From positions 18,817 through 82,816 of the forward strand of contig DASXQT010000070.1 in NCBI GenBank assembly GCA_036507005.1: DNA of 64,000 bases, given 5' to 3'. The stretch is from Candidatus Eiseniibacteriota bacterium (GTDB taxonomy: Bacteria; Eisenbacteria; RBG-16-71-46). Of this stretch, positions 21,267-38,563 are shown piece after piece; position 1 is the stretch's first letter, and the number at the start of each line of letters is the position of its first letter. Both the position numbers and the translations under genes were made by a program. Below the pieces are notes generated by a model, which was not told where the DNA came from, did no database searches, and saw nothing but the letters and a program-made list of their open reading frames with translations.

Positions 21267-21592
21267 CCGTGCACTCCACGTCCCGGAGACGAGTGCCTTG
21301 AGGTTCTCTACGAGCCAGCCACCCGCCCATTCCTGGGTACAACTCACTTCCGACCCGTGCCTCGTGCAGAGGCGCAATGGTGACGCTGGTCGTCTGGGCG
21401 TGGACGAGCGCGCTGTGTTTCTCGACGATCACGTCGTGCCACTCGGCCACAGCGACCCAGAACGTGCTGAGGGTGTCGAGTTTCCTTGAAAGGAAATGGT
21501 CAGCAAGCCAACGAACCTGGGACCGACGGTCGAGCGCAAGAGAGCCTTCGAGGCCAATCCGCAGCGACACACGCACAAGGAGGCGTAGAGAC

Positions 21593-23239: not shown

Positions 23240-24156
23240 TCCCCGTCTCCCAGGGCCGCGCGCACGAAGCCGCCGGCACGCTGGAGGCGCGCTTCGGCCT
23301 CGGCGCGGCCGCAGCCCAGCTTGAGCATCACGATCGCCGTCTTCACGCTCTTGCCCGCCTCGTCGATCGCACGCGCCGCCGCCTCGTAGTCCACGCCCGC
23401 CACCGTCATCACGGTGCGCCGCGAGCGCTCGATCAGCTTCTCGCTGGTCGCCATCAGGTCCACCATCATGTTCTCGTAGACCTTGCCGGTGCGCACGAAG
23501 GCCGCGGTGGTGATCATGTTGAGCACCAGCTTCTGCGCCGTGCCCGCCTTCATGCGGGTCGAGCCCATCAGCACCTCGGGGCCCACCTCGGGGCAGATCG
23601 CCACGTCGATGTCGAGCGCGAACTCGCTGCGCGGCGTGCAGGTCACGTAAGCCGTGCGCGCCCCCAGTCGCTTGGCCACGCGCAGCGCCGCCACCACGAA
23701 GGGCGTGCGGCGGCTCGCGGCGAGGCCGATCACCGTGTCCTTGGGTCCCACCTGCTTCTCGAGGATCGCGCGCTCGCCCTCGTCCTCGCGGTCCTCCGCC
23801 CCTTCGACCGCGTGCACCAGCGCGTCGTACCCGCCGGCGATGATGCCCTGCACCTGCTCGGGATCGGAGCCGAAGGTGGGCGGGCATTCCGAGGCGTCCA
23901 GCACCCCGAGGCGGCCGCTGGTGCCCGCGCCCACGTAGATCAGGCGCCCGCCTTCGCGGAAGGAGGCGATCACCAACTCGACCGCCTTGGCGATCGCCGG
24001 CACCTCCTTGGCCACCGCCGCCTGCACCGCGCGGTCCTCGTCGGAGATGAGCTTGAGGAGCGCCCCGATCTCCAGGCGGTCCAGCTCGGTGGTGCGGGGA
24101 TTGCGCTGCTCGGTGGCGAGGCGGGCGAACTCGTCGAAGCGCGTGCGGTCGCTCAT
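23236..24156 (-). CDS. murQ: N-acetylmuramic acid 6-phosphate etherase
   Basis: TEQRNPRTTELD, the SIS domain GRLIYVGAGTSGRLGVLDASECPPTFG, and LMATSEKLIERS are typical of MurQ. ATG 24156 is preferred over the track start. Confidence 0.9.
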   Translation of the reverse strand: MSDRTRFDEFARLATEQRNPRTTELDRLEIGALLKLISDEDRAVQAAVAKEVPAIAKAVELVIASFREGGRLIYVGAGTSGRLGVLDASECPPTFGSDPEQVQGIIAGGYDALVHAVEGAEDREDEGERAILEKQVGPKDTVIGLAASRRTPFVVAALRVAKRLGARTAYVTCTPRSEFALDIDVAICPEVGPEVLMGSTRMKAGTAQKLVLNMITTAAFVRTGKVYENMMVDLMATSEKLIERSRRTVMTVAGVDYEAAARAIDEAGKSVKTAIVMLKLGCGRAEAEARLQRAGGFVRAALGDGE

Positions 24157-24325
24157 GCGCGGGCGAAGATGCCATGCGGGGCGCGGGGAGCGCAATCGGT
24201 GAATCAGCTGGCTGTACAGAGCAGATGATCTGGCCGGTCTTGGCGAGTGAATGACCGGACCCACGGGGGGTTACTCGGTCTTGCGGGCCCGCACCCCAAA
24301 TCCCGATCCACGGCCGCAAATCGGC

Positions 24326-27088
24326 TCACTCGACCCGAACGCTGTTGGCCAGCCCGAGTTCCTGCAAGATCTGCCGAAGGTCGGCGGCAAGACCTACGGC
24401 ACTCTCGGCCCTCACAGTGACGCAGAACTCCAGGCTGACCTTGAGGTCGGAGCCCGACCGAAGCTTTGGCAGAATCCTCGTCCCCAGGCGGTTCCAAAGC
24501 TCCGGTGGAATCGCGCCCACGAGGCGCAGGGTCTTGGTGGCGGCACCTGGTGCTGGCTCTGGCACAGAGGTGGGGCCAGGCTCCGGCGGTAGTAGTGGCC
24601 CTGCCATCGGACCCGGCTGGGGCACGACCTGAGAACTAGCGGCAAGACCGGCCTTGAGCGCCTCCGCCACAGCCTTTCGTAGCAGGAACACGCCGGCCTC
24701 GAAGGCGACCTCGTCGGGCGCCACGAGCTCCTGGAGCCACACCCGCTCGTAGCTGCCGTCGGGCTTCTGGCCCGAGGCCAGCCCGAACTCTCCGAGTCCA
24801 ACGAACTCGACAATCTTGCTCCGAAGAATCACGTCCGGATCAACAAGCCTCGTGAGCGAGCCGTTGAGGAAGCTCTGCCGCATGCTCGCGAGGGGCCACG
24901 CGCCTGATTGCTTGAGGGCCGGCGGCCAGTTTCGCTCGATGTAGCCCGCGCCCACAGCTTCATTCAGGAGCGCCTGGGACTTGAGCGCGGCGATCACACG
25001 ACCACAGAGCGTCTCATTGCCGCTCGAATGCCCTGCGCCGAGGTCGATCACCTTCAGCCCGTCCGCTTCTTGGCTGTCGGCGAGAACAGCAAACCGGTAG
25101 CCGCCCCAGACCTCATCCTTGGCGGCGTCCTCCGCGTCCTTCATCTTCGCCTGAAGCTCTGCCCGGTCGCTCTTGTCAAATTCACCACCGAGCGTGCCCT
25201 GGGCGACCTCGCGCGCCACGCGCTTCCACGCGAGCCCCAGCTCCGCCTTGTCGCGCAGGTCCCTGCCCGGCTTCTTCAGGCACCAGACGAGCGCTCCCGG
25301 ATAGAGCCGGGGCGATTTTCCGCGCTGGCGTGTCCACTCGGCGAGCTGCGCACGCAACGAGCCGCCTCCCGACCATTCCACCTCCGGATCAGCTATGAGG
25401 AGAGTTAGTTTCGGCGTGTCCGGGATCTCAGCCCCATCGTGCGGAAAGGCCACGACGGGGATGCTGGCGCCGCGTCGGAACTCTTCCTCAACGAGCTTGC
25501 GCATCGCGGGCTTGACCTCGGTTTCCTCGTCGAGCGAAGCGCGCCGGTCGCTCACCACCTTCTTCATGGTCGGCTGGTAGCCGATGCGGAAGCCGTCCGC
25601 GCCCGTCTTGCGGATGAAGTACGACCTGCCTTCGAGAACAATTGCGGCGTTGTCGATTGAAGTCGTGTCAAGCTCGGGCTCGCCGAGCGCGAAGCGCAGC
25701 TCGGGGAGATGCGCGACCTTGTCGGTCTGCCCGCCCGACGACTCGAAGAGGATCGCGGTACCGACGCGCCGGTGGATGTCCCGTAGCGGCCCCTTGGTAT
25801 CCGCGTCGAGTGCCATGCTGTGCGCCTGCTCGCCGGCGATGTCCGTTTCGATCGCGGCGACGAGGCGCGACTCGCCGAGCTGACCCAGTACGACGCTCCG
25901 GAATCCGGGCTCCGCGAGTGGGGCCGATCCAAGCGTGAGGAGCGGCTCCGTACGAGCCTTGCGAAAACCCTCCTGCGCCGCGATCGAGATCCACTGCGCC
26001 AGCATCGCCAGTGTGCCGCGCGTCTGCTGGTACTGGGGCAGCGCCTGCCACTTGCGCTGGAACACCGACAGCGTCGCCGGATGGAACGGGTAGCAGGCCT
26101 CGAAGCGGCGCTGTAGCAACTCGCGCGCTTTGGCCTCGGTCGCGGCCGAGTCCACGGCGGTCCACTCGGGCGGGAGCTGCGCCCGCCGCTCGAAGCACCA
26201 GTCGCCGTAGGCTTTGGCGACGTTCTTCCGAATCTTCTCGCTCCCGAGGTCCTGGAAGAGTCGCCTTCGGACGACTTCGCTGATCTCAGTCTCGTCGTTG
26301 GCGATCAGGTCCTTCGCCACGCGCCGCACGATCTTCGAGATCCTCTCCTGCCACTCCTGATCCCACTCCGTCATCTCGACCTGGCTGCGCGGCAGGCTGA
26401 TCACCGCCGCGCCATGCGTGGTGCCGGTGGTCGCGACCGTCAAGTTCTGGATGAAGGCGTGGAACGATTCGGCGCTGCCGCGGTGGCGGTTCAGGTAGTT
26501 CAGCACCTCATCGAAGAGCAGAAGCACCGGCGCGCCAGCTGCCTGGAAGACCCGCGCGATGGCATCGGTGCCGGGAGGCGTGGCCTTGGCCGCGGAACCA
26601 AGCGCCACGATGCCCTTGTCGCCCGCGAGCTGGCGGGCGATGTCGATCCACGGCGTCTCGCGCCCCGGCTGCGGGTCCCAGGCGTTGCCCACGAACACGG
26701 CGACCTTCGCCTTGGGCACAGAACCTAAGCCCGCTTCGCGCACCAGCTCGGCGACTCCATTGTGGCCGGCCACGGCGTCTCCGTTCTTCACCAGGTGGTA
26801 CAGCGTGGTGAGCGTGTGCGTCTTGCCGCCACCGAACTGGGTGATGAGCGTAAGCACAGGCGACGTGTTGTCGGTTCTCCCGGAGAGCCGGCGCAGCACC
26901 ATGCCCGCGTGCTCGCGTAGGGCGCGCGTGAAGCAGGTGCGCGCGAAGAACTGCGCAGGGTCGCGATAGTCCTCCGGCGCCGTCCCGGCCACGACCTGCT
27001 CGAGGGCGATGGCGAACTCGTCCGGGTTGAACGAGCGGCCTTCGCGCACTTCCTTGCGTGGTGTCGCGACCTTGTACCAGGGTTCCAT
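24326..27088 (-). CDS. DUF499-family P-loop ATPase (BrxC/PglY-like)
   Basis: MEPWYKVATPRKEVREGRSFNPDEFAIALEQVV is a typical DUF499 N-terminus. Walker A is QFGGGKTHTL. 920 aa. It starts 2 nt after the DUF4276 stop. Confidence 0.8.
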   Translation of the reverse strand: MEPWYKVATPRKEVREGRSFNPDEFAIALEQVVAGTAPEDYRDPAQFFARTCFTRALREHAGMVLRRLSGRTDNTSPVLTLITQFGGGKTHTLTTLYHLVKNGDAVAGHNGVAELVREAGLGSVPKAKVAVFVGNAWDPQPGRETPWIDIARQLAGDKGIVALGSAAKATPPGTDAIARVFQAAGAPVLLLFDEVLNYLNRHRGSAESFHAFIQNLTVATTGTTHGAAVISLPRSQVEMTEWDQEWQERISKIVRRVAKDLIANDETEISEVVRRRLFQDLGSEKIRKNVAKAYGDWCFERRAQLPPEWTAVDSAATEAKARELLQRRFEACYPFHPATLSVFQRKWQALPQYQQTRGTLAMLAQWISIAAQEGFRKARTEPLLTLGSAPLAEPGFRSVVLGQLGESRLVAAIETDIAGEQAHSMALDADTKGPLRDIHRRVGTAILFESSGGQTDKVAHLPELRFALGEPELDTTSIDNAAIVLEGRSYFIRKTGADGFRIGYQPTMKKVVSDRRASLDEETEVKPAMRKLVEEEFRRGASIPVVAFPHDGAEIPDTPKLTLLIADPEVEWSGGGSLRAQLAEWTRQRGKSPRLYPGALVWCLKKPGRDLRDKAELGLAWKRVAREVAQGTLGGEFDKSDRAELQAKMKDAEDAAKDEVWGGYRFAVLADSQEADGLKVIDLGAGHSSGNETLCGRVIAALKSQALLNEAVGAGYIERNWPPALKQSGAWPLASMRQSFLNGSLTRLVDPDVILRSKIVEFVGLGEFGLASGQKPDGSYERVWLQELVAPDEVAFEAGVFLLRKAVAEALKAGLAASSQVVPQPGPMAGPLLPPEPGPTSVPEPAPGAATKTLRLVGAIPPELWNRLGTRILPKLRSGSDLKVSLEFCVTVRAESAVGLAADLRQILQELGLANSVRVE

Positions 27089-27089
27089 G

Positions 27090-27737
27090 TCAACGCTCGT
27101 CGGTCCGCGCGCCGCTGGTTGTCGCCCACGAGACCGGGGGCCAGGCATCTACTTGGACCCCGTGGGCTCGAAGCAGCGAGCCGAATGCACTGGTCATGTG
27201 ACGAAAGCTGCGACTGCGCCGGTGGGCCGTGGCCATATCAAACATTGCTGTCAGAGCGGGCTGATCCGCCGTCTCGTGATAGCTGGCATCGGCGGCCATG
27301 AGGTCCTCGAGAGCCGCCTTCGCGCCCCTGGGTGCTTCCGGATCAAATGGGATCGCTGCATCAGGCCGGATACCGCGCTGTCCCCGCAGGGATTCGACCG
27401 CAGCGAGGAACCAGGCCTCGTACTCGCGATGAGCCATGACGACAGAGCATGGAATCCCGGCTGATGCAGCTGCTGCCCACCCCTGAATCCGGGGCGCCAG
27501 ATCGCGGGGACAATCCTCATCCCCGTCAAAGAGAATCAGGATCGCGTTGCAGTGCGCCTGCCTTCGAGCCAGTTCGACCGCCTGACAGAGGGATTCCTCT
27601 CGCACCAGCTGCGAACGATGACGACGAATGGGTCCCCCTACTTGGAGATGGAAAGCCCCCGCCTCATCACGAAGGCGGCGGAGCAGCACAGGCACCGCCT
27701 CCACCTCGCCGTGCCCCTCGACGATCGGCTGGATCAC
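27090..27737 (-). CDS. DUF4276-family (TOPRIM-like) protein
   Basis: 215 aa. The N-terminal IVEGHGEVEAVPVLL (conserved Glu) and ILILFDGDEDCP (DxD) fit a TOPRIM-like metal site. The start overlaps the AAA ATPase stop. Confidence 0.65.
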   Translation of the reverse strand: MIQPIVEGHGEVEAVPVLLRRLRDEAGAFHLQVGGPIRRHRSQLVREESLCQAVELARRQAHCNAILILFDGDEDCPRDLAPRIQGWAAAASAGIPCSVVMAHREYEAWFLAAVESLRGQRGIRPDAAIPFDPEAPRGAKAALEDLMAADASYHETADQPALTAMFDMATAHRRSRSFRHMTSAFGSLLRAHGVQVDAWPPVSWATTSGARTDER

Positions 27738-29002
27738 TCGTCTACTCTTTCGAAGAGATTGGGCTCCGGAGGATTCGACACATTCTCGAAGAGGGGTTCA
27801 GCTCGCAAGGCATTCGATCGAAGCAGCTCGCCGGCCCCCATCACGTGATCGCGAAGTGCTTCCCGAGTCGCCTCCGAGAGGTCGCCGACACGCGTGGCTC
27901 CATGGCCCCATTCAACGATCCGCAGGTGCTCCGCCCGAATCCACTTGGCGTCGAGAACCTCGGGGCTGTGAGTCGTCACCACCACCTGCATGCTCCTCGC
28001 AGCGTGCCGAATGACGTCGAGCACGGCACCTAGAGCGCCGGGATGTATCGTCGCCTCGGGTTCCTCGACCGCAACCAATGAGGGTGACGGACGTTGGAAA
28101 ACTGCGGTCAGAAGTCCGAGTGCCCGCAGTGTGCCGTCCGACATGTTGAACGCTTCGAAGCGAAGACTCTTTGGAGCACCCTTCGGCGGCTTGTCTGCGA
28201 CCCTCCACTTTCCACTCTCTCCCCCCGCATCGTCCCATTCTTGCGTGAACTCGAGGGACAGCTTATTGCCGTGCTTCCTCACGCGGACGGCACGAGTATT
28301 GGGAACGATCGTAGCCAAGATTTCGCAGAGGCGGTCCAACTGTTCCTCGGACTGCCGCCCGATCTCCTGGAGCACGCTGGCGGCGTTGCTCCCGTCCTTC
28401 CGCAGGCTGGTGCCGCCGTCCGGGTCTTGCATCTCTCGCAGCTTTGGGGGCTCGATCGAATAGGCGCGGAACCGCGACAGCGTGGAAACGACCGGCGCGA
28501 AACTGGCGTGGCCGCCCACGAGGGGTAGCGAGAGGGCGGTCGATTCCAAGGCCGGGTCGAGCCCCTTCACGTTCGTACGGAAGGACTTCTTCTCCCGTTC
28601 GAACCAGAATCGAGATTCCTTCGAGTTCTTGACGAGGCATTGTTCCTTCACGACTTCGAAGCCGTAGTTGGGAAGCGCCCGAACCTCAAAGGCATAGCGC
28701 CCGCCGGTTGCATCACCGTTGATCGGCCCGAAGACGACGCCGAGGCCGAGATTGGGCGGATAGCCTCCCTTTTCAGAGGTGCGATTCCGAACGGCAGTGA
28801 TTCCTCCGCGACGGTCGAAGACGGCCTGTAGCGGCACGGCCATAGAGTCCGCCAGGAACGAAAAGGCATCGACCAGATTGCTCTTCCCGGACCCGTTCCG
28901 GCCCACGAGAAACGTTGGATTGTCGAACTCAATGCGCTCACTCGGAATGCTGCGAAAGCGCTTTAGAATCAGACTTCGGACCACCGGCTTCACCATGCTC
29001 AC
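27734..29002 (-). CDS. AAA/ABC-type ATPase (AAA_15/AAA_21-like, SMC-like head)
   Basis: Walker A GRNGSGKSN, signature-like SDGTLRALGLL, Walker B LVAVEEPEATIHP and H-loop VVTTHSPEVL. The start overlaps the methylase stop. Confidence 0.85.
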   Translation of the reverse strand: MSMVKPVVRSLILKRFRSIPSERIEFDNPTFLVGRNGSGKSNLVDAFSFLADSMAVPLQAVFDRRGGITAVRNRTSEKGGYPPNLGLGVVFGPINGDATGGRYAFEVRALPNYGFEVVKEQCLVKNSKESRFWFEREKKSFRTNVKGLDPALESTALSLPLVGGHASFAPVVSTLSRFRAYSIEPPKLREMQDPDGGTSLRKDGSNAASVLQEIGRQSEEQLDRLCEILATIVPNTRAVRVRKHGNKLSLEFTQEWDDAGGESGKWRVADKPPKGAPKSLRFEAFNMSDGTLRALGLLTAVFQRPSPSLVAVEEPEATIHPGALGAVLDVIRHAARSMQVVVTTHSPEVLDAKWIRAEHLRIVEWGHGATRVGDLSEATREALRDHVMGAGELLRSNALRAEPLFENVSNPPEPNLFERVDE

Positions 29003-32000
29003 CTCGGAATGACCACCAGCATCGCGTCGAGCAGGCGCTTCTCCTCGCTCCCCTTAGGGTATAGGGCTGAGAGCGCGTTGGCGAGGCGCAGGAAGTCCGG
29101 GCCGCGCTCCTGCTCGGCCTTGAGCAGCGCACGCAGCGCGTTGGTGCGGCCGCCGGCCTGCAGGAGCATGGCCGCGTGGACGCGGTCGAGGGTCGTCGCC
29201 TCGCGGGCGGCGGCCAGGCTCTCGTCGGAAACGTCGACGTTGCCTCGTGTCCCGCGGATCCGGCCTCGCCCGCGGATCGCGGGAGCAGGGCTGGGCCGCA
29301 TGTCCGGGAAGAGCATCCCCTGGAGCGGGTTGGTGCCGACGGCCACCTCCTGCTCCAGCCGCGCGGCAACAGCTTGCGCGCCGTCCTCGCCGAAGAGTTG
29401 CTTCGCGCGCTCCGCGATCGGCAGCAGGCGCACCACGCCCTTTTTGGTCTCGATGACGCGGCCTTCCCACTTGGGAAGGTCGATGCCGAGCGGCTGCGCG
29501 AAGCGACGCACGACGTCGAAGACGAGCGAGAAGCCCTTGGCCTTGCCGCGGGAGGAGCCCTCTTCGTCGTCGTCCTCGTCGGACGGCTCGTCGTTGTCGC
29601 CTTCATCGCCCGCGGCGTCCGCCGTCTCGCCAACCGTACTCTGGAGCGTCCATAGAAAGAGCGCCGTGAGCCGCGCGTCTTCCTCGACGGCTCCGGCAGC
29701 GCCGTTGCGGGCCTTGGCCTCGGAGGTGCCGAGCACCTGCGCAAGGGCGCTTCGGCCCACGACCTCCCAGACTTTTTCCAGGTACTCGGCAAGGGCGACC
29801 TCGCGCCCGTCGGCGGTTTCAACCTTCGCGTAGCGGCTGAAGACCTCGAGCGCCGGCCCGATGCAGGCGAAGACGAGGTCGGCGCCGCGGATACCCTCGC
29901 CTTGCAGGCGCTCCATCCAATCGCCGACGCGGTTCGGAAGCTCGCGCAGAACGTCGGCCCAGTCGCCTACGCCGGCGTTGTCAGGGCGGGGGCGGCAGAT
30001 AAGGTGGACGCTCGTGGCGAGGGCGGCGGATTCACGGGCTCGGAGGCGTGTCGCCATCTCCGTGGCGATTGGCCACGAGCCGGTGATCGTCCAGCCACCA
30101 CGGATCATGCCAGACAGCAGCGCTTCCCATCCCTCAGTGGTCTTGTGTGCGAAAACCACGGATCCGACGCCGTCTTGACGGAGCACGCGCCGGCCTTCCG
30201 CGAACGCGCGCGCCATCGTTTCCTCGAACCACGCGCGGTTCTTCGGTCGACCGTTGTCTCGCTTCGTCTCATCTTGGACGGCTTCGCGTCGCTTCGGCGA
30301 GAGCGGATTGGCCGGATCAAACGGATCGCGCAGCGGCAGGTAGCCCGGCAGCACTCGCTTGAGCCAAACGAGAAAGAAGTCGGAGAGGTCCGCGTAGGGG
30401 ACCGCATCGTAGTACGGGGGATCGGTGAACCATACGGTCGCGGTCTCATCGGGAAGTGGATGCTCGGCCGCGTCGGCACTCTGCACCTGACCGCCGCGTG
30501 GCGCCGGTGCGGCTTCGATACATTTCGCGATCCACTCCAGCGCCCCGTTGAAGCCAACAGCTGAGAAGACTGGTGCTTCGGCCGTATTCCATTGGGGAGC
30601 GAGCACCTGTCTGGCGAAGACGTGATCTACGAACTCTCTTGAGTCGTGCCAATAGACCAGCGCAGCGCACTTGTCCACAACCCGGTCCACGACCAGCGCA
30701 AGCGTTTCGAGGACGGCGGTTGACTGGATCGAGCCGTCTCTCGCAACGTCTCTGATCGAGTCAATCATCCTCACGAGCGCCACCTTCTGTCGCGCCGTGA
30801 AGAGGTCGCCCCACTGAAGCATGCCGTACCGCTGGACGCTGAACGCGCGGCCAGCGCCCGAGCCGCCACCGGCAGGCGTTGGCTCATCCGGCACCGGGCA
30901 GAGGCCCGGCTTCCCGCCGCGCTCCCACTCAGCGAGGATCGCCGCGAGCCGCTCCTGCGCTTTGCGAGCGCCCTCGTAGTCCCGTTCGGAAGGCAGCCGG
31001 TAGTGCCGCCCCTGCTCGCCGGGTCGGAGCGTAACCACCGCGAGCATTCGCGCCCCGCCCGTACGGCGGCCATTCGCGTCGAAGACGACGTCGGCTCCGC
31101 CGCGCTGCGCGGCGAGCTGCGCACGCACGCGCTCCGGCGGGAGCACTGCGCCGCAGGCGACGCACGCTGCCTTCGCACGGGTCACCGTGCCTGCCGGCAC
31201 ATCCTTCTCCGTCTTCGGCTCGAAGACCTCGAACTCGACTCGCGGCGGCTCGCCTGCGGGCCGCACGACTCGATGCTTAAGCGCCCGCCTGCGCTCCGCC
31301 TTCTTGCAGAGCCAGAGCGAACGCGCGAGCGGGATCTCCGCGCCGCAGTTGGGGGCCTCGCAGCGCACGGTCCGCGCCCAGAGGTAGGCGATCGGCGTCG
31401 CGCCGTCCGGATCCTTCGGGTAGAGGTCCGCCAGCTCCTCTCCTGCTTGTTTCTTGATCTCCGTCCCGACACGGCGCAGCTCCTCGACAAGCTTTGACCC
31501 GTGGCGCGGAATGTCCTCGAGCATCACCTTGAGGATCAGGCATGCGACCGGGTTCAGGTCGCTCGCAAAAGCCTCGCACCCCAGCCGCAGCGCCTCGAGC
31601 GGGATCGAGCCACCCCCCGCAAACGGGTCCACGACCAGCGGCGGCTCCTCGCCGTGCGCCGCCTTCACCAGCGCCCGGCTCACCTCGAGATAGGTGCGTT
31701 GCGCCGCGTTATCCCAGTTCGCGAAGTCCGCGATGAACTTGAGCAGTGCCTTGCGCAGGTCCTCGTCCGTGGTCCCGGGATTGCAGCCGCCCACCTGCGG
31801 CAAGAGCTTTCGCGCCTGCTCCTTGAATTCCATCGGGCAAAGCGGATCGCACGGGTCCGGATACAGCAGCGCGAGCAGCACCGCTCGGCTCGACGCCAGC
31901 GGCCGCCGCGCCCACCACAGGTGCAGCGTGCTCGGATGCCCGTGGCGGATCGACTTCTCCCGCGCCGCGTGCCGCGAAACTTCCGCGATCGGGAAATCCA

Positions 32001-32034
32001 CCTCGGCGAGGCGCTTGCAGTCCTTGGGGATCAC
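28999..32034 (-). CDS. DUF1156-domain DNA methyltransferase (N6-adenine/N4-cytosine type)
   Basis: DUF1156 N-terminus (EVDFPIAEVSRHAAREKSIRHGHPSTLHLWWARRP). AdoMet motif VVDPFAGGGS. Catalytic motif FTDPPYYD. The GTG start at 32034 overlaps the DUF3644 stop (GTGA). Confidence 0.85.
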   Translation of the reverse strand: MIPKDCKRLAEVDFPIAEVSRHAAREKSIRHGHPSTLHLWWARRPLASSRAVLLALLYPDPCDPLCPMEFKEQARKLLPQVGGCNPGTTDEDLRKALLKFIADFANWDNAAQRTYLEVSRALVKAAHGEEPPLVVDPFAGGGSIPLEALRLGCEAFASDLNPVACLILKVMLEDIPRHGSKLVEELRRVGTEIKKQAGEELADLYPKDPDGATPIAYLWARTVRCEAPNCGAEIPLARSLWLCKKAERRRALKHRVVRPAGEPPRVEFEVFEPKTEKDVPAGTVTRAKAACVACGAVLPPERVRAQLAAQRGGADVVFDANGRRTGGARMLAVVTLRPGEQGRHYRLPSERDYEGARKAQERLAAILAEWERGGKPGLCPVPDEPTPAGGGSGAGRAFSVQRYGMLQWGDLFTARQKVALVRMIDSIRDVARDGSIQSTAVLETLALVVDRVVDKCAALVYWHDSREFVDHVFARQVLAPQWNTAEAPVFSAVGFNGALEWIAKCIEAAPAPRGGQVQSADAAEHPLPDETATVWFTDPPYYDAVPYADLSDFFLVWLKRVLPGYLPLRDPFDPANPLSPKRREAVQDETKRDNGRPKNRAWFEETMARAFAEGRRVLRQDGVGSVVFAHKTTEGWEALLSGMIRGGWTITGSWPIATEMATRLRARESAALATSVHLICRPRPDNAGVGDWADVLRELPNRVGDWMERLQGEGIRGADLVFACIGPALEVFSRYAKVETADGREVALAEYLEKVWEVVGRSALAQVLGTSEAKARNGAAGAVEEDARLTALFLWTLQSTVGETADAAGDEGDNDEPSDEDDDEEGSSRGKAKGFSLVFDVVRRFAQPLGIDLPKWEGRVIETKKGVVRLLPIAERAKQLFGEDGAQAVAARLEQEVAVGTNPLQGMLFPDMRPSPAPAIRGRGRIRGTRGNVDVSDESLAAAREATTLDRVHAAMLLQAGGRTNALRALLKAEQERGPDFLRLANALSALYPKGSEEKRLLDAMLVVIPR

Positions 32035-33107
32035 GAGGTTGCGCTCCTGGCTTCAATGGGCTTCGCGGTGGCCTTTCTTCTCGTGATGATGTTCGCGTAG
32101 AGCGCAAGATCAGCGAGCCTCTCCCCAAGGAAGTCGACCCACTGCCGCGTGTAGCAGTAGTCCTTGTGGAGATCATCGTAGACACAGAACTGAGGGTTGC
32201 ACGATGACGGATCCGGTGCCCTGCTTGTCGGCCGGATCTTGAAATGCTCATAGCAAAGCTTGTGGTCGTAAGTCGTGAACCGCTTGCCGAGCTTGGTCGC
32301 AACTTGGTTTGCCACCTGCGTCGGCTTCAACAGGCCCAGATTTGCGATCTGCACCTCCTTCGGCTTGATCATCGCCACTACCTTGTCGTAGTTCCTCATC
32401 TCCTCAGGCTTCGAGGGATCGTACTTGACCCATTCCACTGCAACTGAATCCTTGCTCGCGTGATTGCCGATCTTCGGAACGAGGAAGACTTTGAAGCTGT
32501 ACGCCAGATCGTTCTGCACGTCCGCGCTCAGACTCGACCTGAAGGCGTCCACGTATTGCTTGATCGCCTTGAATGCTCCAGCAGTAGCTTTGGCGGCCGG
32601 CGCCGATGAACCCTTCGGAATGACATGTGAGAACTGCAAGGCAAACGTGAGACCGCCGCGAATCGCGTACCGGTCACCAAAATCCGAAACCAGCAAGGAC
32701 TCGAAGTTCAGCAGCAGCGCTTGGCATTCGCCGAAGACTTCTGGATCGATCTGCGCAAGTGAACGATGCTCGATCTTGTTGCGGAGCCCAATGAAGAACT
32801 CGAGATTACGCCGGGCGGCAGGGTTAGTCGCCTTGTAGTGTTGCTGCAGACACTCCTTGAGCTCCCAGCGTCGAGGCTCGCCATCGATTCGGTCGTACCG
32901 TCTTGATCCGGGCTTTCGGTAGTACGGCTTGGTTCCATTGCGAAGGAACATCGCGTGAAAGAGGGACGTCCAGGCGATGATCATCAGGACGACATACGCG
33001 CCTGACCGGAAGCTCGCCGTGGGGCGGTTGTAGGTCTCCACAGCGAGCAGGGCGGTCTCCCTCGCCTTTTCGACGAGAGCCTTGACATCGTAGGGCAGCC
33101 CCCTCAT
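32031..33107 (-). CDS. DUF3644-family protein
   Basis: ARETALLAVETYNRPTASFRSGAYVVLMIIAWTSLFHAMFL matches the conserved DUF3644 N-terminal block. 358 aa. Confidence 0.6.
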   Translation of the reverse strand: MRGLPYDVKALVEKARETALLAVETYNRPTASFRSGAYVVLMIIAWTSLFHAMFLRNGTKPYYRKPGSRRYDRIDGEPRRWELKECLQQHYKATNPAARRNLEFFIGLRNKIEHRSLAQIDPEVFGECQALLLNFESLLVSDFGDRYAIRGGLTFALQFSHVIPKGSSAPAAKATAGAFKAIKQYVDAFRSSLSADVQNDLAYSFKVFLVPKIGNHASKDSVAVEWVKYDPSKPEEMRNYDKVVAMIKPKEVQIANLGLLKPTQVANQVATKLGKRFTTYDHKLCYEHFKIRPTSRAPDPSSCNPQFCVYDDLHKDYCYTRQWVDFLGERLADLALYANIITRRKATAKPIEARSATS

Positions 33108-33238
33108 GGGGTCTCATCCCTCAACGCGGGCGTACTCGGATGCCCGTGCCGGACAGACTTCTGCCGCGCCGCGTGCCGCGAAACTTCCGCGATCGGGAAG
33201 TCCACCTCGGCCAGGCGCTTGCAGTCCTTCGGGATCAC
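33104..33238 (-). pseudogene. 44-codon relic of the DUF1156 methylase 5' end
   Basis: 33135-33238 is about 92% identical to 31931-32034. It encodes VIPKDCKRLAEVDFPIAEVSRHAARQKSVRHGHP then diverges. Its GTG overlaps the AIPR stop (GTGA) and its TGA overlaps the DUF3644 ATG (ATGA). Confidence 0.8.
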
Positions 33239-35019
33239 TGGGCCATCTCCACGTCGAGCGCCTTACGAAACTTCGCCCACGCGCGATTGAACGCCGTTCG
33301 CGACCTGTTCCCGGAACCGCGCCACTGCTTGCCGAACTCCTTGTGCAGGTTGCGGCGCTGGAAGAACGTCGAGACGTCGATGGCCTTCTGTCCGGAGCCG
33401 CGCTTGTCGCGGTAGAACCGCAGGACCGCCACGAAAACCGCGTCGATCGCCCGGAGCAGCGGAGTCACGACGTCCGCGGTGTCGCGCTCACAGGCATTCC
33501 GGAACGCCTCAGTCTGGGTACGCTTCCGGCAGACTGACTCGAGGGAAACCCAGAGGAAGTTCAGCACCAGCCACTTCGCGTAGGCTCGCTCCGGATAGCC
33601 CCGCGCGGCGTAACTCACCTCGCGCATAAGCCAGTACCGCGACAGGTAGTAGTTCGGATCAGCCGTGGGGAAAATCTGCCCGTACCATCGTTCCTCGAAG
33701 AGGCGCTCCTTGCCCTCGCGAACGATCGAGGGATCGAGGTCACAGCCGGCCACGGCCTGTGCGATCTCCTCCTTCTTCACCAAGCGCAGATGTCGCGTGC
33801 CTGCAGCCCGCCGAGCCTCCCCCTTTGTCGTCCGTTTGCGGAGGTAGAGGTAGTGCAGCTTGCGGAGCTGACGTTCGATCTCGATCTGGCGCCGATCGTT
33901 CGACATCAGGTCCGACGGGCGAATCGCGTTCTGCCAATTCGTTGCCGAGACTATGCGGGATACTAGCGTCTCGAAGTTGTTGCCATTCTGGCTCGGTGAC
34001 CGCGGAACACGGATCACCCGGACAAGCACGCTCGCGCGCGGCCCCTTGCGTACGCTGCGCGCAAGGGTGCGCGTGGTTTGCTGGCCGTTGATCACCTGCG
34101 GATTAGTGACGCGCAGGATGTTCCTTCCTCGGCTCGACTCCTGCGTCGCGTCGTCGCAGACGATGGTGACTCCGTTGTTGTAGTACCAGAAGTACTCGGG
34201 CTCGTCCGTGAGCGTGGCTTCCATGCCTCGGTTGATCTCGCTGCTGCCGAGGAAGCCGCGGACATTTCTGGCAAAGAGCCGAGTGCCGGCCCGCTCGAAC
34301 AGGCCGGCCACTGCGAGATCGGTCATGGAGAACACCCACGATTCGATGTCGGTCTTGCTGTCGTAACGATTGAAGACGCCAGCCGTGCGCACGCCACCAC
34401 CCGACTCGATGTCGAGGTCGAGCGACGGCACGGGCGGCGCCACACCATCGAGGTAGTCGGCAAGCAGCAGAAGGATGCGCTTGCCGTCGAAGAGCTGGAA
34501 GGTGACCGTGCTGCCTGCTGCGCGGACGATGCGACTCGCCTCGTCATGGAGTGCACTGCTGCACTTGCCCAGTGTCACGTAGAACATGTGCAGCGCGTAT
34601 CCGCGCTTGCGGATTCGGCCGCGGGCGTCCTCGAGCCGGCCGAGCACCTCCGAGGAGATATCCTTGGCGAGGCTCGCGAAGGCCGCTCCGTCTCCGCAGA
34701 GATCCACGGCGAGTTGCGCGAACCCGGCCACATCTCCCCGGTGTTCGTTCTTCGTGGCGACCTTCTGACGGTACTTGCCCTGAACCACGAACACGATCCG
34801 CGCGGGATCGTCGATCAGGACGGCGTCCACTCCCTTGTCACGCGGTCCACCGCACAAGCCCGCCGTTGCCGCGGACTCGTCCTCGGCCACGAAGGCGCGC
34901 AGGAAAAAAAGGACGAACAGCTCGTCGTCGCCTAGCTTCGGGTAGCGGTCCCGGAACTCGGCGAGTTCGCGGCGTAGGTCGGTTTCGGTGAGATGGGCGT
35001 TGGCCATGGGCGTCAGCAT
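33235..35019 (-). CDS. AIPR-family abortive-infection protein with N-terminal PD-(D/E)xK-like module
   Basis: YYNNGVTIVCD and VINGQQTTRTL match AIPR core motifs. N-terminal DKGVDAVLIDD...VFVVQGKY looks like a restriction-endonuclease-fold motif. The start is ATG 35019 or 35007. Confidence 0.75.
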   Translation of the reverse strand: MLTPMANAHLTETDLRRELAEFRDRYPKLGDDELFVLFFLRAFVAEDESAATAGLCGGPRDKGVDAVLIDDPARIVFVVQGKYRQKVATKNEHRGDVAGFAQLAVDLCGDGAAFASLAKDISSEVLGRLEDARGRIRKRGYALHMFYVTLGKCSSALHDEASRIVRAAGSTVTFQLFDGKRILLLLADYLDGVAPPVPSLDLDIESGGGVRTAGVFNRYDSKTDIESWVFSMTDLAVAGLFERAGTRLFARNVRGFLGSSEINRGMEATLTDEPEYFWYYNNGVTIVCDDATQESSRGRNILRVTNPQVINGQQTTRTLARSVRKGPRASVLVRVIRVPRSPSQNGNNFETLVSRIVSATNWQNAIRPSDLMSNDRRQIEIERQLRKLHYLYLRKRTTKGEARRAAGTRHLRLVKKEEIAQAVAGCDLDPSIVREGKERLFEERWYGQIFPTADPNYYLSRYWLMREVSYAARGYPERAYAKWLVLNFLWVSLESVCRKRTQTEAFRNACERDTADVVTPLLRAIDAVFVAVLRFYRDKRGSGQKAIDVSTFFQRRNLHKEFGKQWRGSGNRSRTAFNRAWAKFRKALDVEMAQ

Positions 35020-38000
35020 CCTGTTCCGTAAGGCGGCGAGTCCTCGCGCACCTGCATCGGCTTCGTCATCGCGTTCACCGCCAAGTAGTAGTGGGCCACC
35101 TTCGTCACCTCGTTCCAGTCGAGGCGCGCCGGGTCACGAATCGGCTCCTGGAGTCGAGGAGCATTGTCGCAGTCGGTGACGACGTAGAGCCAGAAACAGT
35201 CGGGGCGGTCTTCTGCCACGCGCCGCTCATTGGGCGTGAGCAGTATTGTGCCGGTCGCTGCGCCAAGCCCCTTCACCTCGATGAGGCGCAGCTCTCCGGA
35301 GGCCAGATCGAGGCTCGTGACGTCGTAGCCCAGATTCTTCTCGGAGACGTCGTAGACCTGCCGGCCCTGCGCCCTCTCGCGCTCCATGACCACGCGCATG
35401 GCGATGGCTTCGGTCTCGAAGTTCGGCCTGAGACGCCGGACCTCTGGCGCCTCGCGCTCAGGGTGCGGCAGCGCGAGGACGCTCGCGAGCCGCTCGACCG
35501 CCTGGAGCGTGAGCGCCCGCTGGCGATCGAGGTCGACCCTGCGGCGCTCGCGGCGGGCCAGCAGCTCCGCGTGGCGCGCTTCAGCCTGTGCGAGCCGTCC
35601 CTCGGCACCGGGAAGCTTCTGTTCCACGTCGGCCGCGGCGCGGCCGATCTCCTCGTCCGCGCGCTGGAGCAGCTCGGTGAGCGAAAGCTCGACGTGGGCG
35701 CTGACCCGCTCGACCTCGGAGAGGCGTTCCTTGCGGGTCTCTTCGAGGAACGGTGCGAGCGCGTGCTCGTGGAGCCAGGTCGTCGCCTCGGGGAGGGTCG
35801 CGACCGCGGGCATCTGGGCCGGCGGGTCTGCAGGCGCGAAGTTGCCAAGCAGGCCAGGCTCCTGGAGCCGAGGTTCGCCGTCCTCGGGGATCTCCACCGC
35901 GAACAGCCGCTCGTGGACCACCTGCCCGAGTCCGTCCACCACGCGCGCCCGGTAGAAGTCGATGCGCGCCGGGTTTTCGTGCTGGAGCGAGTGGAAGGTC
36001 GCGCCCGTGCCGAGCACGTCGACCGCCCGCGCGTGGGTGTGCCGCCGGATCGCCTCGAAGAGCGGATGACCGGGCGTGACCCACTCCAGCTTCTCGGTCT
36101 CGGCGGCCTCGCGGTCCGTGGAGCAGCGCGGATAGCGGTCCGCGAGCGCGGGAAGCTTCCAGTCCTGGTCCTTCTCGTAACGACGAAGGATCGAGGGCGT
36201 GCGCGCCGGCTCGAAGGCGTGCGGCACGCTCGGGATGGTCTTGAGGGTGAGCGGCACAAACTCGGCCGCCTCACGGAGAAAACGCGCGATGGTCTCCGGC
36301 ACGACCCGCCGCTCTTGCGCCTGCGCGCGCCGCTCGATCAGCATCTCGAGGTTGAGCTTCTTGCTTGCGAGGCCCTCGAGGGCGTTTTGGCAGATGGCGC
36401 GGAACTGCGCTTCGTCCACATCGCGGAGCATGCGCTCCTCGAGATCCGCGTCGCCGAGCTTGCCGGCGTAGTAGTCGCGCAGCACGCGTTCGACGTGGGC
36501 TGCAGGCAGGACCTCGCCGACGACGTTGAAGACGGCGTCATCGTCCAGCGCGTCGCGAATCTCCTGCAGCTTTTCGTGCAGCCGCTGCAGGACGCGGCCC
36601 TCGATGGTGTTCGTAGCCACGAAGTTGAAGATCAGGCAGTCCTTGCGCTGCCCGTAGCGGTGGATGCGGCCCATCCGCTGCTCGAGGCGGTTCGGGTTCC
36701 ACGGGATGTCGTAGTTGAAGAGGATGTTGCAGACCTGGAGGTTGATCCCCTCGCCCGCGGCCTCGGTGGCAACAAGAACCTGGATCTCACCTTCGCGGAA
36801 CTGCTGCTCGGCGTGGAGGCGGGTGCCCGGCTCGTCACGCGACCCCGGCTTCATGCCGCCGTGGATGTAGCCGACGCGGAAACCCCACGACTTGAGTCGA
36901 TCAACGAGGTAGTCCAATGTGTCCTTGAACTCGGTGAAGAGAAGCAGTCGCTGGTCCGCGTGGTCGAAGAAGCCCTGCTCGTGGAGCAGGGCCTTGAGAT
37001 TCGAGAGCTTGGCCTCGGTGCCCGCGTCCTCGACCACCTGCGCCTGGGCCGCGAGGTGTCGCAGCTCCTCGACCTCGTTGCGAACCTGCTCCGCGCTCCC
37101 GGCGAGCGTGATGGCCTCGAGCATGGTTTCGAGCCGCTCGCGCTCGCTCTCCTCCATCTCCTCCAGCTCCTCCGGATCGGGGAGATCCGGCGGCGCCAAA
37201 CGCGCCAACTCCTGCGCTCGCTTAAGCCCCTCTTCAAGGCGTCGCACCCGATTCTCAAGCGACCGCCGCATGGCATGCGTGCTGGAAGCAAGCCGACGCT
37301 GGTAGAGCGACATCAGGAAGCCGATTGCCCGGGCGCGTGGATCTTCGCCCCCGGCCGCCGCGCGAGCGCTCTCACGCTTCACGAAGCGCGTTACGTCCCG
37401 GTACAGCTCGAACTCCGCCCCGTCGATCTGGAAGTCCACCGTGTGCGGAATCCGCTTGGTGAAGATCGGCTTGGCGGCCCAGCTGCCGTCCGTCTGCCGC
37501 TCCGGGAAATAGACCATTGCCTCTTTGGTCCGGCGCAGATAGAACGGCGCGCGCCGCTGGTCCATCGCTTGGCGGATGGACCGGACGTCCGCGTACGCGT
37601 CGGCATCGAGGAGCTGCAGGAAAAGGCTGAAGTTTTTTGGGTCGCCCTTGTGCGGGGTCGCTGTGAGCAGCAGGAGGTGGTCGGAGATGTCGCGCAGCAG
37701 CTCCCCCAGCCGGTAGCGCAGGCTCTTGTGCGACTCGTCCGCCGCCGACATGCGGTGCGCCTCGTCGACGATGACGAGATCCCAGTGGACCTGCCGCAGC
37801 CCGGGCAAGATCTCGCTGCGTTTGGCTAGGTCGAGGGACGTGATGAGCCGGTTCCGCTCCAGCCACTGGTTCACGCCGAACTGATCGCGGATGTCCTGGC
37901 CCTTGAGCACGAGGAACTTCGCGTCGAACTTCTCTTTGAGCTCGCGCTGCCACTGGAACGCGAGGTTGGCCGGACAGACGATGAGAATGCGCTCGGCGAG

Positions 38001-38450
38001 TCCGCGCAGCTCGAGCTCACGAATCAGTAGCCCCGCCATGATGGTCTTCCCCGCCCCGGCGTCGTCGGCGAGGAGGAAGCGCACGCGTGGCAGCTTCAGC
38101 AGGTGGTCGTAGATCGCCTCGAGTTGGTGCGGCAGCGGATCCACGCGAGAGATCGAAAGCCCGAAGTATGGATCGAACTCGTAGGCGATACCGAGGGCGT
38201 AGGCCTGGAGACCCAGCCGGAGGAGGCGTCCGTCGCCAGCGAAGGAATGCCGGGCGTCCAGGACCGCGAGGCGCTCGATCTCTTCGGCGCTGAGCGTCAC
38301 TTTGCGGAAGCGCTCCGATTGTGTGCCGACCATCCCAACGACCCAACTCGCCGGGCCATTGGGTTGCACAGTCTCGACGCGCATCGGCTCGTTGAAGTGC
38401 GGGCCGGTGAGGATCTGGCCCGGGTGCAGGGGTGGGGTTCCAACCGTCAT
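35013..38450 (-). CDS. SNF2-family helicase with C-terminal DUF3883 (PD-(D/E)xK-like) domain
   Basis: Motif I LADDAGAGKT, motif II VIVDEAHRM, motif III LLLTATP, motif VI QRMGRIHRYGQ. The C-terminal YDVTSLD...LRLIEVKG...CFWLYVV is DUF3883-like. The start is uncertain (ATG 38450, 38480 or 38543). Confidence 0.85.
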   Translation of the reverse strand: MTVGTPPLHPGQILTGPHFNEPMRVETVQPNGPASWVVGMVGTQSERFRKVTLSAEEIERLAVLDARHSFAGDGRLLRLGLQAYALGIAYEFDPYFGLSISRVDPLPHQLEAIYDHLLKLPRVRFLLADDAGAGKTIMAGLLIRELELRGLAERILIVCPANLAFQWQRELKEKFDAKFLVLKGQDIRDQFGVNQWLERNRLITSLDLAKRSEILPGLRQVHWDLVIVDEAHRMSAADESHKSLRYRLGELLRDISDHLLLLTATPHKGDPKNFSLFLQLLDADAYADVRSIRQAMDQRRAPFYLRRTKEAMVYFPERQTDGSWAAKPIFTKRIPHTVDFQIDGAEFELYRDVTRFVKRESARAAAGGEDPRARAIGFLMSLYQRRLASSTHAMRRSLENRVRRLEEGLKRAQELARLAPPDLPDPEELEEMEESERERLETMLEAITLAGSAEQVRNEVEELRHLAAQAQVVEDAGTEAKLSNLKALLHEQGFFDHADQRLLLFTEFKDTLDYLVDRLKSWGFRVGYIHGGMKPGSRDEPGTRLHAEQQFREGEIQVLVATEAAGEGINLQVCNILFNYDIPWNPNRLEQRMGRIHRYGQRKDCLIFNFVATNTIEGRVLQRLHEKLQEIRDALDDDAVFNVVGEVLPAAHVERVLRDYYAGKLGDADLEERMLRDVDEAQFRAICQNALEGLASKKLNLEMLIERRAQAQERRVVPETIARFLREAAEFVPLTLKTIPSVPHAFEPARTPSILRRYEKDQDWKLPALADRYPRCSTDREAAETEKLEWVTPGHPLFEAIRRHTHARAVDVLGTGATFHSLQHENPARIDFYRARVVDGLGQVVHERLFAVEIPEDGEPRLQEPGLLGNFAPADPPAQMPAVATLPEATTWLHEHALAPFLEETRKERLSEVERVSAHVELSLTELLQRADEEIGRAAADVEQKLPGAEGRLAQAEARHAELLARRERRRVDLDRQRALTLQAVERLASVLALPHPEREAPEVRRLRPNFETEAIAMRVVMERERAQGRQVYDVSEKNLGYDVTSLDLASGELRLIEVKGLGAATGTILLTPNERRVAEDRPDCFWLYVVTDCDNAPRLQEPIRDPARLDWNEVTKVAHYYLAVNAMTKPMQVREDSPPYGTGC

Positions 38451-38563
38451 GCTGCCGCGACCTTCAAGGACACTCCCCATTCCGACTCTGGCGGGTTGTC
38501 GAAACGCCGGCAGGCCCTCGCACCGTCGGGACACCCACCGCAACCGACCAGCTCCATCAACTC

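Follow-up and report, generated by a model that had tools for sequence, protein, structure and literature searches.

HEC-01, an ABC-type ATPase and DUF4276 gene pair embedded in an Hma operon

Gene pair and host operon

We analysed two adjacent minus-strand genes in the window, the whole 64,000-nucleotide stretch of DNA to which all positions refer. The ORF listing gives them as open reading frames of 215 aa (27090-27737) and 422 aa (27734-29002), and we call them HEC-01B and HEC-01A after the catalogued family described below. They lie between a DUF1156 methylase gene and a DUF499 ATPase gene, with all junctions coupled (Table 1). An earlier note on this DNA had placed an ATPase and DUF4276 pair between these two genes; both the ORFs and the Pfam assignments agree with that placement, and every motif quoted in the note was found. 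The genes are real and not chance ORFs: their homologues number 2,220 at E<=1e-3, and the representative clusters, 2,277 in all, come from many phyla.

Table 1 Features of the operon, in order of transcription (positions in the window).
Feature	Position	Strand	Details
hmaA, SNF2 helicase with C-terminal NOV_C/DUF3883 nuclease-like domain	35013..38543	-	SNF2-rel_dom, Helicase_C, NOV_C; PADLOC HmaA 1.6e-173
AIPR (AbiU/MzaE-like) gene	33235..35019	-	Pfam AIPR 4e-42; PADLOC AbiU 1.4e-41
DUF3644 gene (PADLOC candidate PDC-S19)	32031..33107	-	Pfam 2.2e-51; PADLOC PDC-S19 1.3e-134
hmaB, DUF1156 N6-adenine DNA methyltransferase, upstream core gene	28999..32034	-	DUF1156 6.2e-22; PADLOC HmaB 1.4e-111
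HEC-01A, ABC-type (OLD/SMC-like) ATPase	27734..28996	-	420 aa from ATG 28996; ORF open from GTG 29002
HEC-01B, DUF4276 Toprim-like putative metal-dependent nuclease	27090..27737	-	215 aa, GTG start
hmaC, DUF499 AAA+ ATPase, downstream core gene	24326..27088	-	Pfam DUF499; PADLOC HmaC 1.4e-91

The most likely start of HEC-01A is the ATG in Table 1, which matches the gene callers. At this junction the last hmaB codons (CCG AGG TGA) supply the sequence GAGGTGA, which is the Shine-Dalgarno sequence of HEC-01A. The stop codon of the ATPase gene overlaps the GTG start of HEC-01B in the GTGA at 27734-27737, and hmaC most likely begins at the ATG at 27088, 1 nt past the HEC-01B stop, and not at 27148; the gene calls at loci L001/L002 agree with this start. 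A sigma-70 promoter scan of 24000-39200, which may not suit a high-G+C organism, returned zero sites, and thus gives no evidence for an internal promoter before the pair. The same region holds 4 terminator-like sites versus 9.7 expected.

The operon that carries the pair is of the Hma type (HmaA/B/C), or Type-1 BREX-related, with all three core genes on the minus strand and hmaA as its first gene; HmaB also matches the NCBIfam model DUF1156_antiphage (1.1e-58). Two further cassettes are embedded in it. The AIPR gene occupies the hmaA-hmaB junction as the second cassette, and the DUF3644 gene, the third, lies between two copies of a 109-nt stretch from the hmaB 5' end. These copies form direct repeat D1 (31926-32034 versus 33130-33238, 93% identical). 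No direct repeats in the window bracket the HEC-01 pair; the hmaB 5' duplication around the DUF3644 gene is the only such case. The G+C content of the operon is 0.60-0.68 versus 0.70-0.75 in its flanks, and among 61 genomes from this taxonomic family only 1 carries the gene; the island was gained horizontally.

Motifs and predicted folds of the two proteins

HEC-01A carries the nucleotide-binding motifs in full: Walker A (G34-R-N-G-S-G-K40-S-N), an ABC signature (M287-S-D-G-T291), Walker B (V-E313-E-P-E316) and an H-loop (T343-T-H345-S-P). Residues G34, K40, S288, G290, T291, E313-E316 and H345 are invariant in 40 HEC-01A homologues. Pfam assigns the protein to AAA_21 (5.6e-31), with SMC_N and AAA_15 also matching. 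Residues 5-404 align to positions 6-385 of the 399-position PADLOC profile PDLC04178 (4.8e-107), and the PADLOC AbiLi model matches at 3.3e-22. Sequence matches include SMC and PtuA chains. The AF2 model (pLDDT 89.5) retrieves Rad50, SMC and PtuA heads by Foldseek at E 3.5e-13 or weaker, with 582 matches at E<=0.001. Its modelled ABC head fold, together with the Walker A, signature, Walker B and H-loop motifs, identifies HEC-01A as an ABC-type ATPase and not an AAA+ protein.

HEC-01B contains two acidic motifs, I-V-E7-G-H-G-E and F-D71-G-D73-E-D75. Across 52 diverse DUF4276 homologues, E7, D71, E105 and E107 are invariant, and D73 (at least 90%) and K140 are nearly so. DUF4276 (2.9e-12) is its single Pfam match, even at E<=1, and residues 2-190 cover positions 4-193 of the 197-position PADLOC profile PDLC04196 (3.8e-66). 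Published analyses, including that of Payne et al. (10.1101/2024.01.29.577857), place DUF4276 in Toprim. The AF2 model (pLDDT 91.3) is ordered beta1-alpha-beta-alpha-beta3-alpha-beta4, with predicted strands at residues 2-6, ~33-38, 65-70 and 97-101 and helices between them. This is the layout of the four-stranded alpha/beta Toprim core, with E7 right after strand 1 and D71-x-D73 right after strand 3. A different, helical C-terminal part follows the Toprim domain and carries conserved Y153, Q159 and R176-S-F-R.

Fold searches with HEC-01B were less productive and did not convincingly retrieve a Toprim fold. Foldseek against the PDB gave nothing at E<0.001 (best E 0.011), and the search against BFVD gave no match at that threshold and none of relevance. 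XccOLD (6njv) ranked third in the PDB search (E 0.015, TM 0.37) amid generic alpha/beta folds and was the sole nuclease among the top matches. Both phmmer and a profile of the 52 sequences matched PDB sequences only spuriously (formate dehydrogenase gamma, a designed repeat protein). A profile alignment of HEC-01B to six OLD proteins by hhalign (E 0.002, at a probability of only 13%) pairs E7 with the Glu of the OLD VEGDSE motif and D71/D73 with the OLD DxD, and is the sole hhalign match to OLD proteins. The expectation that the 215-aa protein would model as a Toprim protein was thus borne out for strand order and for the placement of the Glu and DxD residues, but not for a PDB match at E<0.001. 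The broader description of the pair as a split OLD-like ATPase and Toprim protein agrees with the Foldseek matches of the ATPase head, the conserved Glu/DxD residues and their hhalign placement on OLD residues.

Family membership, known relatives and genomic context

By sequence, the pair is a member of HEC-01 (Hma-embedded candidate 01, PADLOC-DB v2; Payne, Hughes, Fineran & Jackson, bioRxiv 10.1101/2024.01.29.577857), an already catalogued candidate defence system, and is not new. Both the A and the B model match, and the genes are adjacent on the same strand with A before B. Payne et al. [quoted passage not shown] The pair studied here has the same two proteins with full-length HMM matches, the same Hma host and orientation, and the same predicted metal site. 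It differs in nothing of substance; its genome is high in G+C and ~3.6 Mb in size, and its operon also carries the AIPR and DUF3644/PDC-S19 genes. Since the arrangement is already catalogued as HEC-01, we regard the pair as an ordinary further example, one more instance of a PADLOC family. One HEC-01 representative gave no protection in E. coli against any phage assayed (10.1101/2024.01.29.577857), so a defence function of the family has never been demonstrated. The earlier note had called a DUF4276 pair nested in such an operon uncharacterised. That claim is superseded: the pair is published as HEC-01 and was assayed in E. coli, MAD3-MAD4 has been solved and assayed, and BREX-related systems have already been surveyed for OLD-ABC plus TOPRIM back-up modules.

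MAD3-MAD4, a distantly related module from the MADS system of Pseudomonas aeruginosa, is the best experimental model for the pair. Here too a separate ABC-type ATPase and a small DUF4276-type Toprim protein lie inside a methylation-based defence operon. MAD3-MAD4 form a 2:2 complex with ATPase activity and Mg/Mn-dependent DNA nicking and cleavage (NAR 2026, PMC13662399), and ATP hydrolysis is uncoupled from cleavage in vitro (PMC13662399). MAD4 alone is insoluble, and toxicity appears only when both proteins are co-expressed (PMC13662399). Its site (D12, D81, E83, E119, E121, K164) binds Mg2+ in the solved structure (PMC13662399), and the acidic pocket and lysine of HEC-01B follow the same order with similar spacing, although MAD4 has Asp in place of Glu7. 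The hosts differ as well: MADS comprises 8 genes, including a kinase and a second ATPase-nuclease pair, whereas the operon in the window has hmaABC and no other mad genes. Orthology was rejected, as the NCBIfam MAD3 model reaches 93 bits where its cut-off is 420, PADLOC mad3 matches at only 5.2e-21, and no mad4 model matches. Because the pairs are not orthologous, we carry the MAD3-MAD4 biochemistry over to HEC-01 only as an analogy.

PARIS likewise comprises two genes, an AriA ABC ATPase and an AriB Toprim nuclease, often near or inside R-M or BREX loci, and provides the model case of a nuclease set free when its ATPase detects an anti-restriction protein. AriB, however, is a DUF4435 protein that cleaves tRNA, whereas HEC-01B is DUF4276. 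HEC-01B has no AriB or DUF4435 match in PADLOC or Pfam, and its ATPase partner matches only the generic, AAA_21-derived AriA model; we therefore rejected orthology with PARIS. OLD nucleases and Gabija GajA share the order of ABC ATPase then Toprim, and their catalytic Glu and DxD positions agree with HEC-01B by profile alignment, but they are fusions, whereas the HEC-01 domains sit on two ORFs with a stop codon between. The OLD-like_TOPRIM model PF20469 has no match in HEC-01B and none in the genome to which the window belongs. The ATPase/RloB pairs of type I R-M loci and AbiL (AbiLi/AbiLii) are likewise embedded in restriction operons and join an ATPase to a small partner of the Toprim superfamily, but belong to other Pfam families. 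Similarity to RloB is marginal, with weak matches in 10 of the 52 DUF4276 homologues (best E 0.0025).

For the genomic context of the family, we surveyed 80 genome loci with 78 pairs and scanned the first ORF to either side. In 78/80 loci the DUF4276 gene immediately follows the ATPase gene, with a 4-nt stop/start overlap in 56; adjacency of the two genes is obligate across phyla. One distant homologue of 609 aa (P0271) fuses both domains in the OLD order. Hma operons hold only twelve of the 78 pairs, each at the hmaB-hmaC junction, and about six are in DISARM-like loci, next to DISARM DrmD or a type III methylase. All other pairs, which are the majority, are free-standing with unrelated genes at their flanks. 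Such pairs do occur in methylase loci, as the earlier note had supposed, but most close relatives are free-standing, so the association is not methylase-specific. Stacked loci show duplicated hmaB/hmaC ends.

Proposed function and cassette exchange

We consider HEC-01 to be, probably, a self-contained two-gene module that works independently of Hma and encodes a putative second-line nuclease; in this operon it sits at the hmaB-hmaC junction and is translationally coupled with Hma. By analogy with MAD3-MAD4, PARIS, Gabija and OLD, HEC-01A and HEC-01B would form a hetero-oligomer, probably A2B2, in which the ATPase dimer may hold and stabilise the nuclease. HEC-01A would then respond to a phage-derived cue as sensor or switch, upon which the predicted Toprim site (E7, D71/D73, E105/E107, K140, with Mg2+/Mn2+) would cut nucleic acid. 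Such cutting might provide a second line of defence once the methylation-based Hma is evaded or inhibited. Hma itself would be one of several landing sites of HEC-01, with no functional requirement for it. In this genome the pair could also guard the operon by sensing inhibitors of the Hma complex, and it may serve in anti-anti-restriction, the role for which the earlier note named comparable pairs. With an intact HEC-01 copy and two further cassettes, all coupled in a single operon, the locus is a reasonable test case for whether embedded modules guard their host.

The pair could instead be an integral effector arm of Hma, with the methylation-reading core recruiting or licensing the cutting of unmethylated DNA, comparable to MAD3-MAD4 in MADS. 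Co-orientation and translational coupling with hmaB and hmaC on both sides, and the shared hmaB-hmaC junction of all 12 Hma-embedded relatives, would fit such a role, as would the loss of MADS defence upon disruption of MAD3/MAD4. Rakesh & Krishnan further describe other nucleases, including TOPRIM, in or close to Type-1 BR loci in which the helicase has no nuclease fusion, a lack for which they likely compensate. HmaA, however, retains its C-terminal NOV_C nuclease-type domain, so compensation is not needed here. Some 85% of the closest relatives lie outside Hma, a good many of them adjoining housekeeping genes, and the same pair family also occurs in DISARM-like loci. The Hma context is moreover polyphyletic on the pair tree, with at least 5 changes, and we consider an integral role unlikely.

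The negative outcome of the sole published HEC-01 assay would also be expected of a selfish, addiction-type or passenger cassette that plays no part against phages and is kept by its mobility and by the toxicity of the assembled complex. The toxicity of the related MAD3-MAD4 upon co-expression points the same way, as do the scattering of copies across phyla alongside unrelated genes and the existence of decayed copies (L017 with an internal stop; L082, an orphan DUF4276 gene). This seems improbable given that the residues for catalysis and nucleotide binding stay strongly conserved between phyla, at 50-80% identity, and that the pair recurs in three kinds of defence operon with constant orientation. 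Embedded genes in general are 96.7% co-oriented (Payne et al., 10.1101/2024.01.29.577857), and the related modules MAD3/4, AriA/B and GajA are genuine parts of defence systems. The self-contained second-line module is the reading we retain for HEC-01, a family that is widespread and strongly conserved and has no demonstrated phenotype.

We tentatively propose that recombination via conserved core-gene ends carries HEC-01 cassettes from one Hma operon to another, and also out of Hma, which we hold to be quite possible if somewhat short of probable. Payne et al. (10.1101/2024.01.29.577857), who define embedding, leave cassette exchange unaddressed, and the word 'recombination' is absent from their text. 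Under this proposal, the cassette would carry the last hmaB codons as its Shine-Dalgarno sequence and coupled leader reading frame, stacking of cassettes would leave scars in the form of duplicated gene ends, and many of the free-standing pairs would have escaped from Hma; the same may extend to embedded defence cassettes in general. Gene-end relics, namely the hmaB tails, the stacked hmaB/hmaC ends and the 109-nt hmaB 5' duplication, make this a concrete and testable picture of cassette exchange. In four free-standing copies, 29-40 codons of the hmaB 3' end persist as a relic, which points to recombinational exchange.

The Hma operon and its embedded genes

The flagged ATPase and DUF4276 genes form part of a seven-gene co-directional series on the minus strand, as given by the ORF listing of the window (Table). 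Within Hma, the pair is a textbook HEC-01 (HEC for "Hma-embedded candidate"). Payne et al. [quoted passage not shown] The earlier note had described a split OLD-like pair nested in a DUF1156/DUF499 system; its structural reading stands, but its novelty does not, since this arrangement is already published. Rakesh & Krishnan, who renamed Hma "Type-1 BREX-related", reported at least 1,242 taxa in which BREX or related systems have an OLD-ABC ATPase paired with a TOPRIM or other nuclease as a back-up effector.

The junctions around the pair are tight. The 3' end of hmaB reads CCG AGG TGA, and an ATG follows two bases on at 28996. This is most likely the start of HEC-01A, giving a protein of 420 aa, the version chosen by gene callers in two metagenomic copies; GAGGTGA is its ribosome-binding site. 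The HEC-01A stop and the GTG start of HEC-01B overlap in GTGA, and the likeliest start of hmaC is ATG 27088, a single base past the HEC-01B stop, rather than 27148. The AIPR/AbiU-like and DUF3644/PDC-S19 genes are two more embedded candidates, so that three cassettes are nested at the two Hma junctions.

Several genes near the operon were also observed. The 770-aa ORF that borders hmaC is over-extended: its solute-binding-protein domain is confined to residues 404-701, so the real gene is far smaller, and 24326 is the end of the Hma operon. A lower-G+C stretch just past the sugar-binding-protein gene that comes after hmaC could represent another small defence islet. Upstream of the operon lies a divergent protease gene, separated from hmaA by two small ORFs without Pfam matches.

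Coordinates of the operon genes, their surroundings and the core-gene relics (L numbers are genome loci fetched as relatives of the pair)
Feature	Position	Strand	Details
hmaA, helicase	window 35013-38543	minus	1176 aa; PADLOC HmaA 1.6e-173
AbiU/AIPR gene	window 33235-35019	minus	594 aa; PADLOC AbiU/AIPR 1.4e-41
DUF3644 gene	window 32031-33107	minus	358 aa; PADLOC PDC-S19 1.3e-134
hmaB, methylase	window 28999-32034	minus	1011 aa; Pfam DUF1156; PADLOC HmaB 1.4e-111
HEC-01A, ATPase ORF	window 27734-29002	minus	422 aa; PADLOC HEC-01A 4.8e-107, full length
HEC-01B, DUF4276 ORF	window 27090-27737	minus	215 aa; PADLOC HEC-01B 3.8e-66
hmaC ORF	window 24326-27148	minus	940 aa; Pfam DUF499; PADLOC HmaC 1.4e-91
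Direct repeat, hmaB 5' end	window 31926-32034 and 33130-33238		109 nt; 93% identical
Over-extended ORF	window 22007-24319		770 aa; solute-binding-protein domain at residues 404-701
Possible defence islet	window 19962-21940		AbiTii-domain protein (434 aa) and HTH_3 protein; G+C 0.62
Protease gene	window 39869-41092		ClpP-like SDH-family serine protease
hmaB-tail relic	L003 8620-8739		free-standing pair
hmaB-tail relic	L004 8671-8781		free-standing pair
hmaB-tail relic	L036 8688-8774		free-standing pair
hmaB-tail relic	L065 8676-8777		free-standing pair
Second hmaB tail	L023 8751-8783		embedded pair; E 0.49
Second hmaB tail	L044 836-874		embedded pair; E 0.02
hmaC 5' relic	L048 10693-10755		21 codons
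hmaC N-terminal fragment	L077 6195-6544		118 aa
Orphan DUF4276 gene	L082 10001-10594		no ATPase gene upstream

The ATPase and its Toprim-like partner

The motifs named in the earlier note are present in both translations: GRNGSGKSN (G34-N42), VEEPE (E313-E316) and TTHSP (T343-P347) in the ATPase, and IVEGHGE (E7) and FDGDED (D71-D75) in the 215-aa protein. Pfam assigns AAA_21 (5.6e-31) and AAA_15 to the ATPase, together with SMC_N at its N-terminus. Its AlphaFold2 model, built from 40 homologues (pLDDT 89.5), has 582 PDB matches at E≤0.001, with the ABC heads of Rad50, SMC and PtuA at E about 1e-13, and the Walker A, signature, Walker B and H-loop residues do not vary across 40 sequences. These matches and invariant motifs identify it as an ABC ATPase and rule out the AAA+ class.

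The small protein belongs to Pfam DUF4276 (2.9e-12), a family listed in the Toprim superfamily and one to which Mad4 of MADS is homologous (Menshen paper). In its AlphaFold2 model (pLDDT 91.3) strands alternate with helices, and the Toprim-defining positions are occupied, with E7 directly after strand 1 and D71-x-D73 directly after strand 3. E7, G8, D71, E105, E107, Y153 and Q159 are invariant among 52 homologues (36-55% identity), and D73 and K140 are conserved in at least 90% of them. Motifs and topology fit the Toprim-like metal site that the earlier note proposed. Direct fold similarity was weak: PDB and BFVD returned nothing at E <0.001, and in third place, amid generic alpha/beta folds, came the C-terminal part of the OLD protein from Xanthomonas (E 0.015, TM 0.37). 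Aligning DUF4276 by hhalign with a profile of six OLD-family proteins from related genomes gave one match, at E 0.002 but a probability of only 13%, in which E7 pairs with the invariant Glu of the OLD VEG motif and D71/D73 with the OLD DxD. Weak RloB matches occurred in 10 of the 52 homologues. Published structure predictions likewise describe the HEC-01 ATPase as ABC-type and the HEC-01B metal site as common with Burkholderia OLD (bioRxiv 10.1101/2024.01.29.577857).

The best experimental model for the pair comes from the MADS system of P. aeruginosa, in which MAD3-MAD4 was solved as a stable 2:2 heterotetramer. By itself MAD4 is insoluble and MAD3 lacks ATPase activity; together they hydrolyse ATP and, with Mg2+ or Mn2+, nick plasmid DNA or make it linear, and co-expression of both proteins is toxic. 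Mg2+ is bound in a MAD4 pocket of D12, D55, D81, E83, E119, E121 and K164 (2026 NAR, PMC13662399). HEC-01B residues E7, D71, D73, E105, E107 and K140 follow the same order with similar spacing. Orthology of the window's ATPase to MAD3 was rejected (NCBIfam MAD3, 93 bits against a cut-off of 420), and a mad4 model search of the pair gave no match even at E≤10. The two pairs are not orthologous, and the biochemistry is therefore carried over by analogy only.

Distribution of the pair and its probable role

A search of one genome per species yielded at least 516 relatives, of which the best 80 were taken with 10-kb flanks. These span Acidobacteriota, Planctomycetota, Chloroflexota, Verrucomicrobiota, Elusimicrobiota, Latescibacterota, Pseudomonadota, Actinomycetota and other phyla. 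Linkage of the two genes is obligate: in tblastn searches with the window's proteins, the ATPase gene lies immediately 5' of the DUF4276 gene in 78 of these 80 loci (the other two being a contig edge and an orphan DUF4276 gene), and 56 loci share the 4-nt stop/start overlap. Decayed copies occur in L017, with an internal stop at codon 143 of the DUF4276 match, and in L082, where an orphan DUF4276 gene stands without its ATPase gene. In a single library protein, P0271 (609 aa), an ATPase resembling HEC-01A (33% identical to that of the window) and a DUF4276 domain (residues 419-598) are fused in OLD order; the fusion may be natural and OLD-like, or it may reflect a sequencing error within the overlap of 4 nt.

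Only 12 of the best 80 loci have an Hma context, with hmaB immediately upstream in 12/12 and hmaC visible downstream in 9/12. About six pairs adjoin a DISARM-type DrmD helicase and/or a type III methylase, and the remaining 55 or so have unrelated flanks, e.g. GNAT acetyltransferases, RecA and transporters. The pair is not restricted to methylase loci. A well-supported HEC-01 clade adjoins the DrmD SNF2 helicase (PADLOC 6.9e-209) and type III-like methylases, upstream in L045, L047, L057 and L069 and downstream in L032 and L070; the module is thus embedded in DISARM-like loci too.

In a maximum-likelihood tree of the concatenated pair, Hma context requires at least five changes, and the tree does not agree with organismal phylogeny. 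Among the best 80 of at least 516 relatives, the closest to the window's pair (79% identity) is free-standing, in an Acidobacteriota MAG (L003). The gene was found in 1 of 61 genomes of the window's own taxonomic family, and the operon's G+C is below that of its flanks. Sparse occurrence, tree and composition together indicate that the island was horizontally acquired. The pair thus constitutes a self-contained mobile module, with Hma as one of several landing sites.

We consider it probable that the pair is a self-standing module in which the ATPase gates a Toprim nuclease, providing a second layer alongside the methylation-based Hma. The two proteins would probably assemble as an A2B2 complex, in which the ABC ATPase may stabilise the nuclease and act as sensor or switch for a putative trigger, and the acidic pocket would cleave a nucleic acid substrate in a metal-dependent manner, perhaps as a back-up. 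That the pair is instead an integral effector of the window's Hma system seems unlikely, since HmaA still has a nuclease-type C-terminal domain and most relatives of the pair lack Hma. Less likely again is a selfish or passenger cassette, a reading kept alive by the published assay in which HEC-01 protected E. coli against none of the tested phages (bioRxiv 10.1101/2024.01.29.577857).

Possible traces of cassette exchange

Scars at the cassette borders are the only part of this analysis that goes beyond the literature searched; Payne et al. (bioRxiv 10.1101/2024.01.29.577857) do not discuss cassette exchange by recombination. In four free-standing pairs, from unrelated MAGs, the ATPase start is immediately preceded by a remnant of the hmaB 3' end, in frame and comprising its last 29-40 codons (HMM E 5e-15 to 5e-21). 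Similarity stops sharply further upstream, and no other Hma parts occur within 10 kb. In the embedded pairs of L023 and L044, another insert follows hmaB and a second hmaB tail, of 11-13 codons and weakly matched, stands directly before HEC-01A. In L048, an hmaC 5' relic past HEC-01B is followed by another cassette and then by the real hmaC.

The window has a comparable feature, in that a direct repeat of the hmaB 5' end brackets the DUF3644 (PDC-S19) cassette and looks like the scar of an insertion at the hmaA-hmaB junction. Tail relics and duplicated core-gene ends fit a model in which cassettes are exchanged and stacked when the conserved core-gene ends recombine, a model that we infer from a small sample of sequences. 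The hmaB tail, carrying the ribosome-binding site of the ATPase, would then move along with HEC-01. An hmaC fragment also lies 2.3 kb upstream of the free-standing pair in L077.
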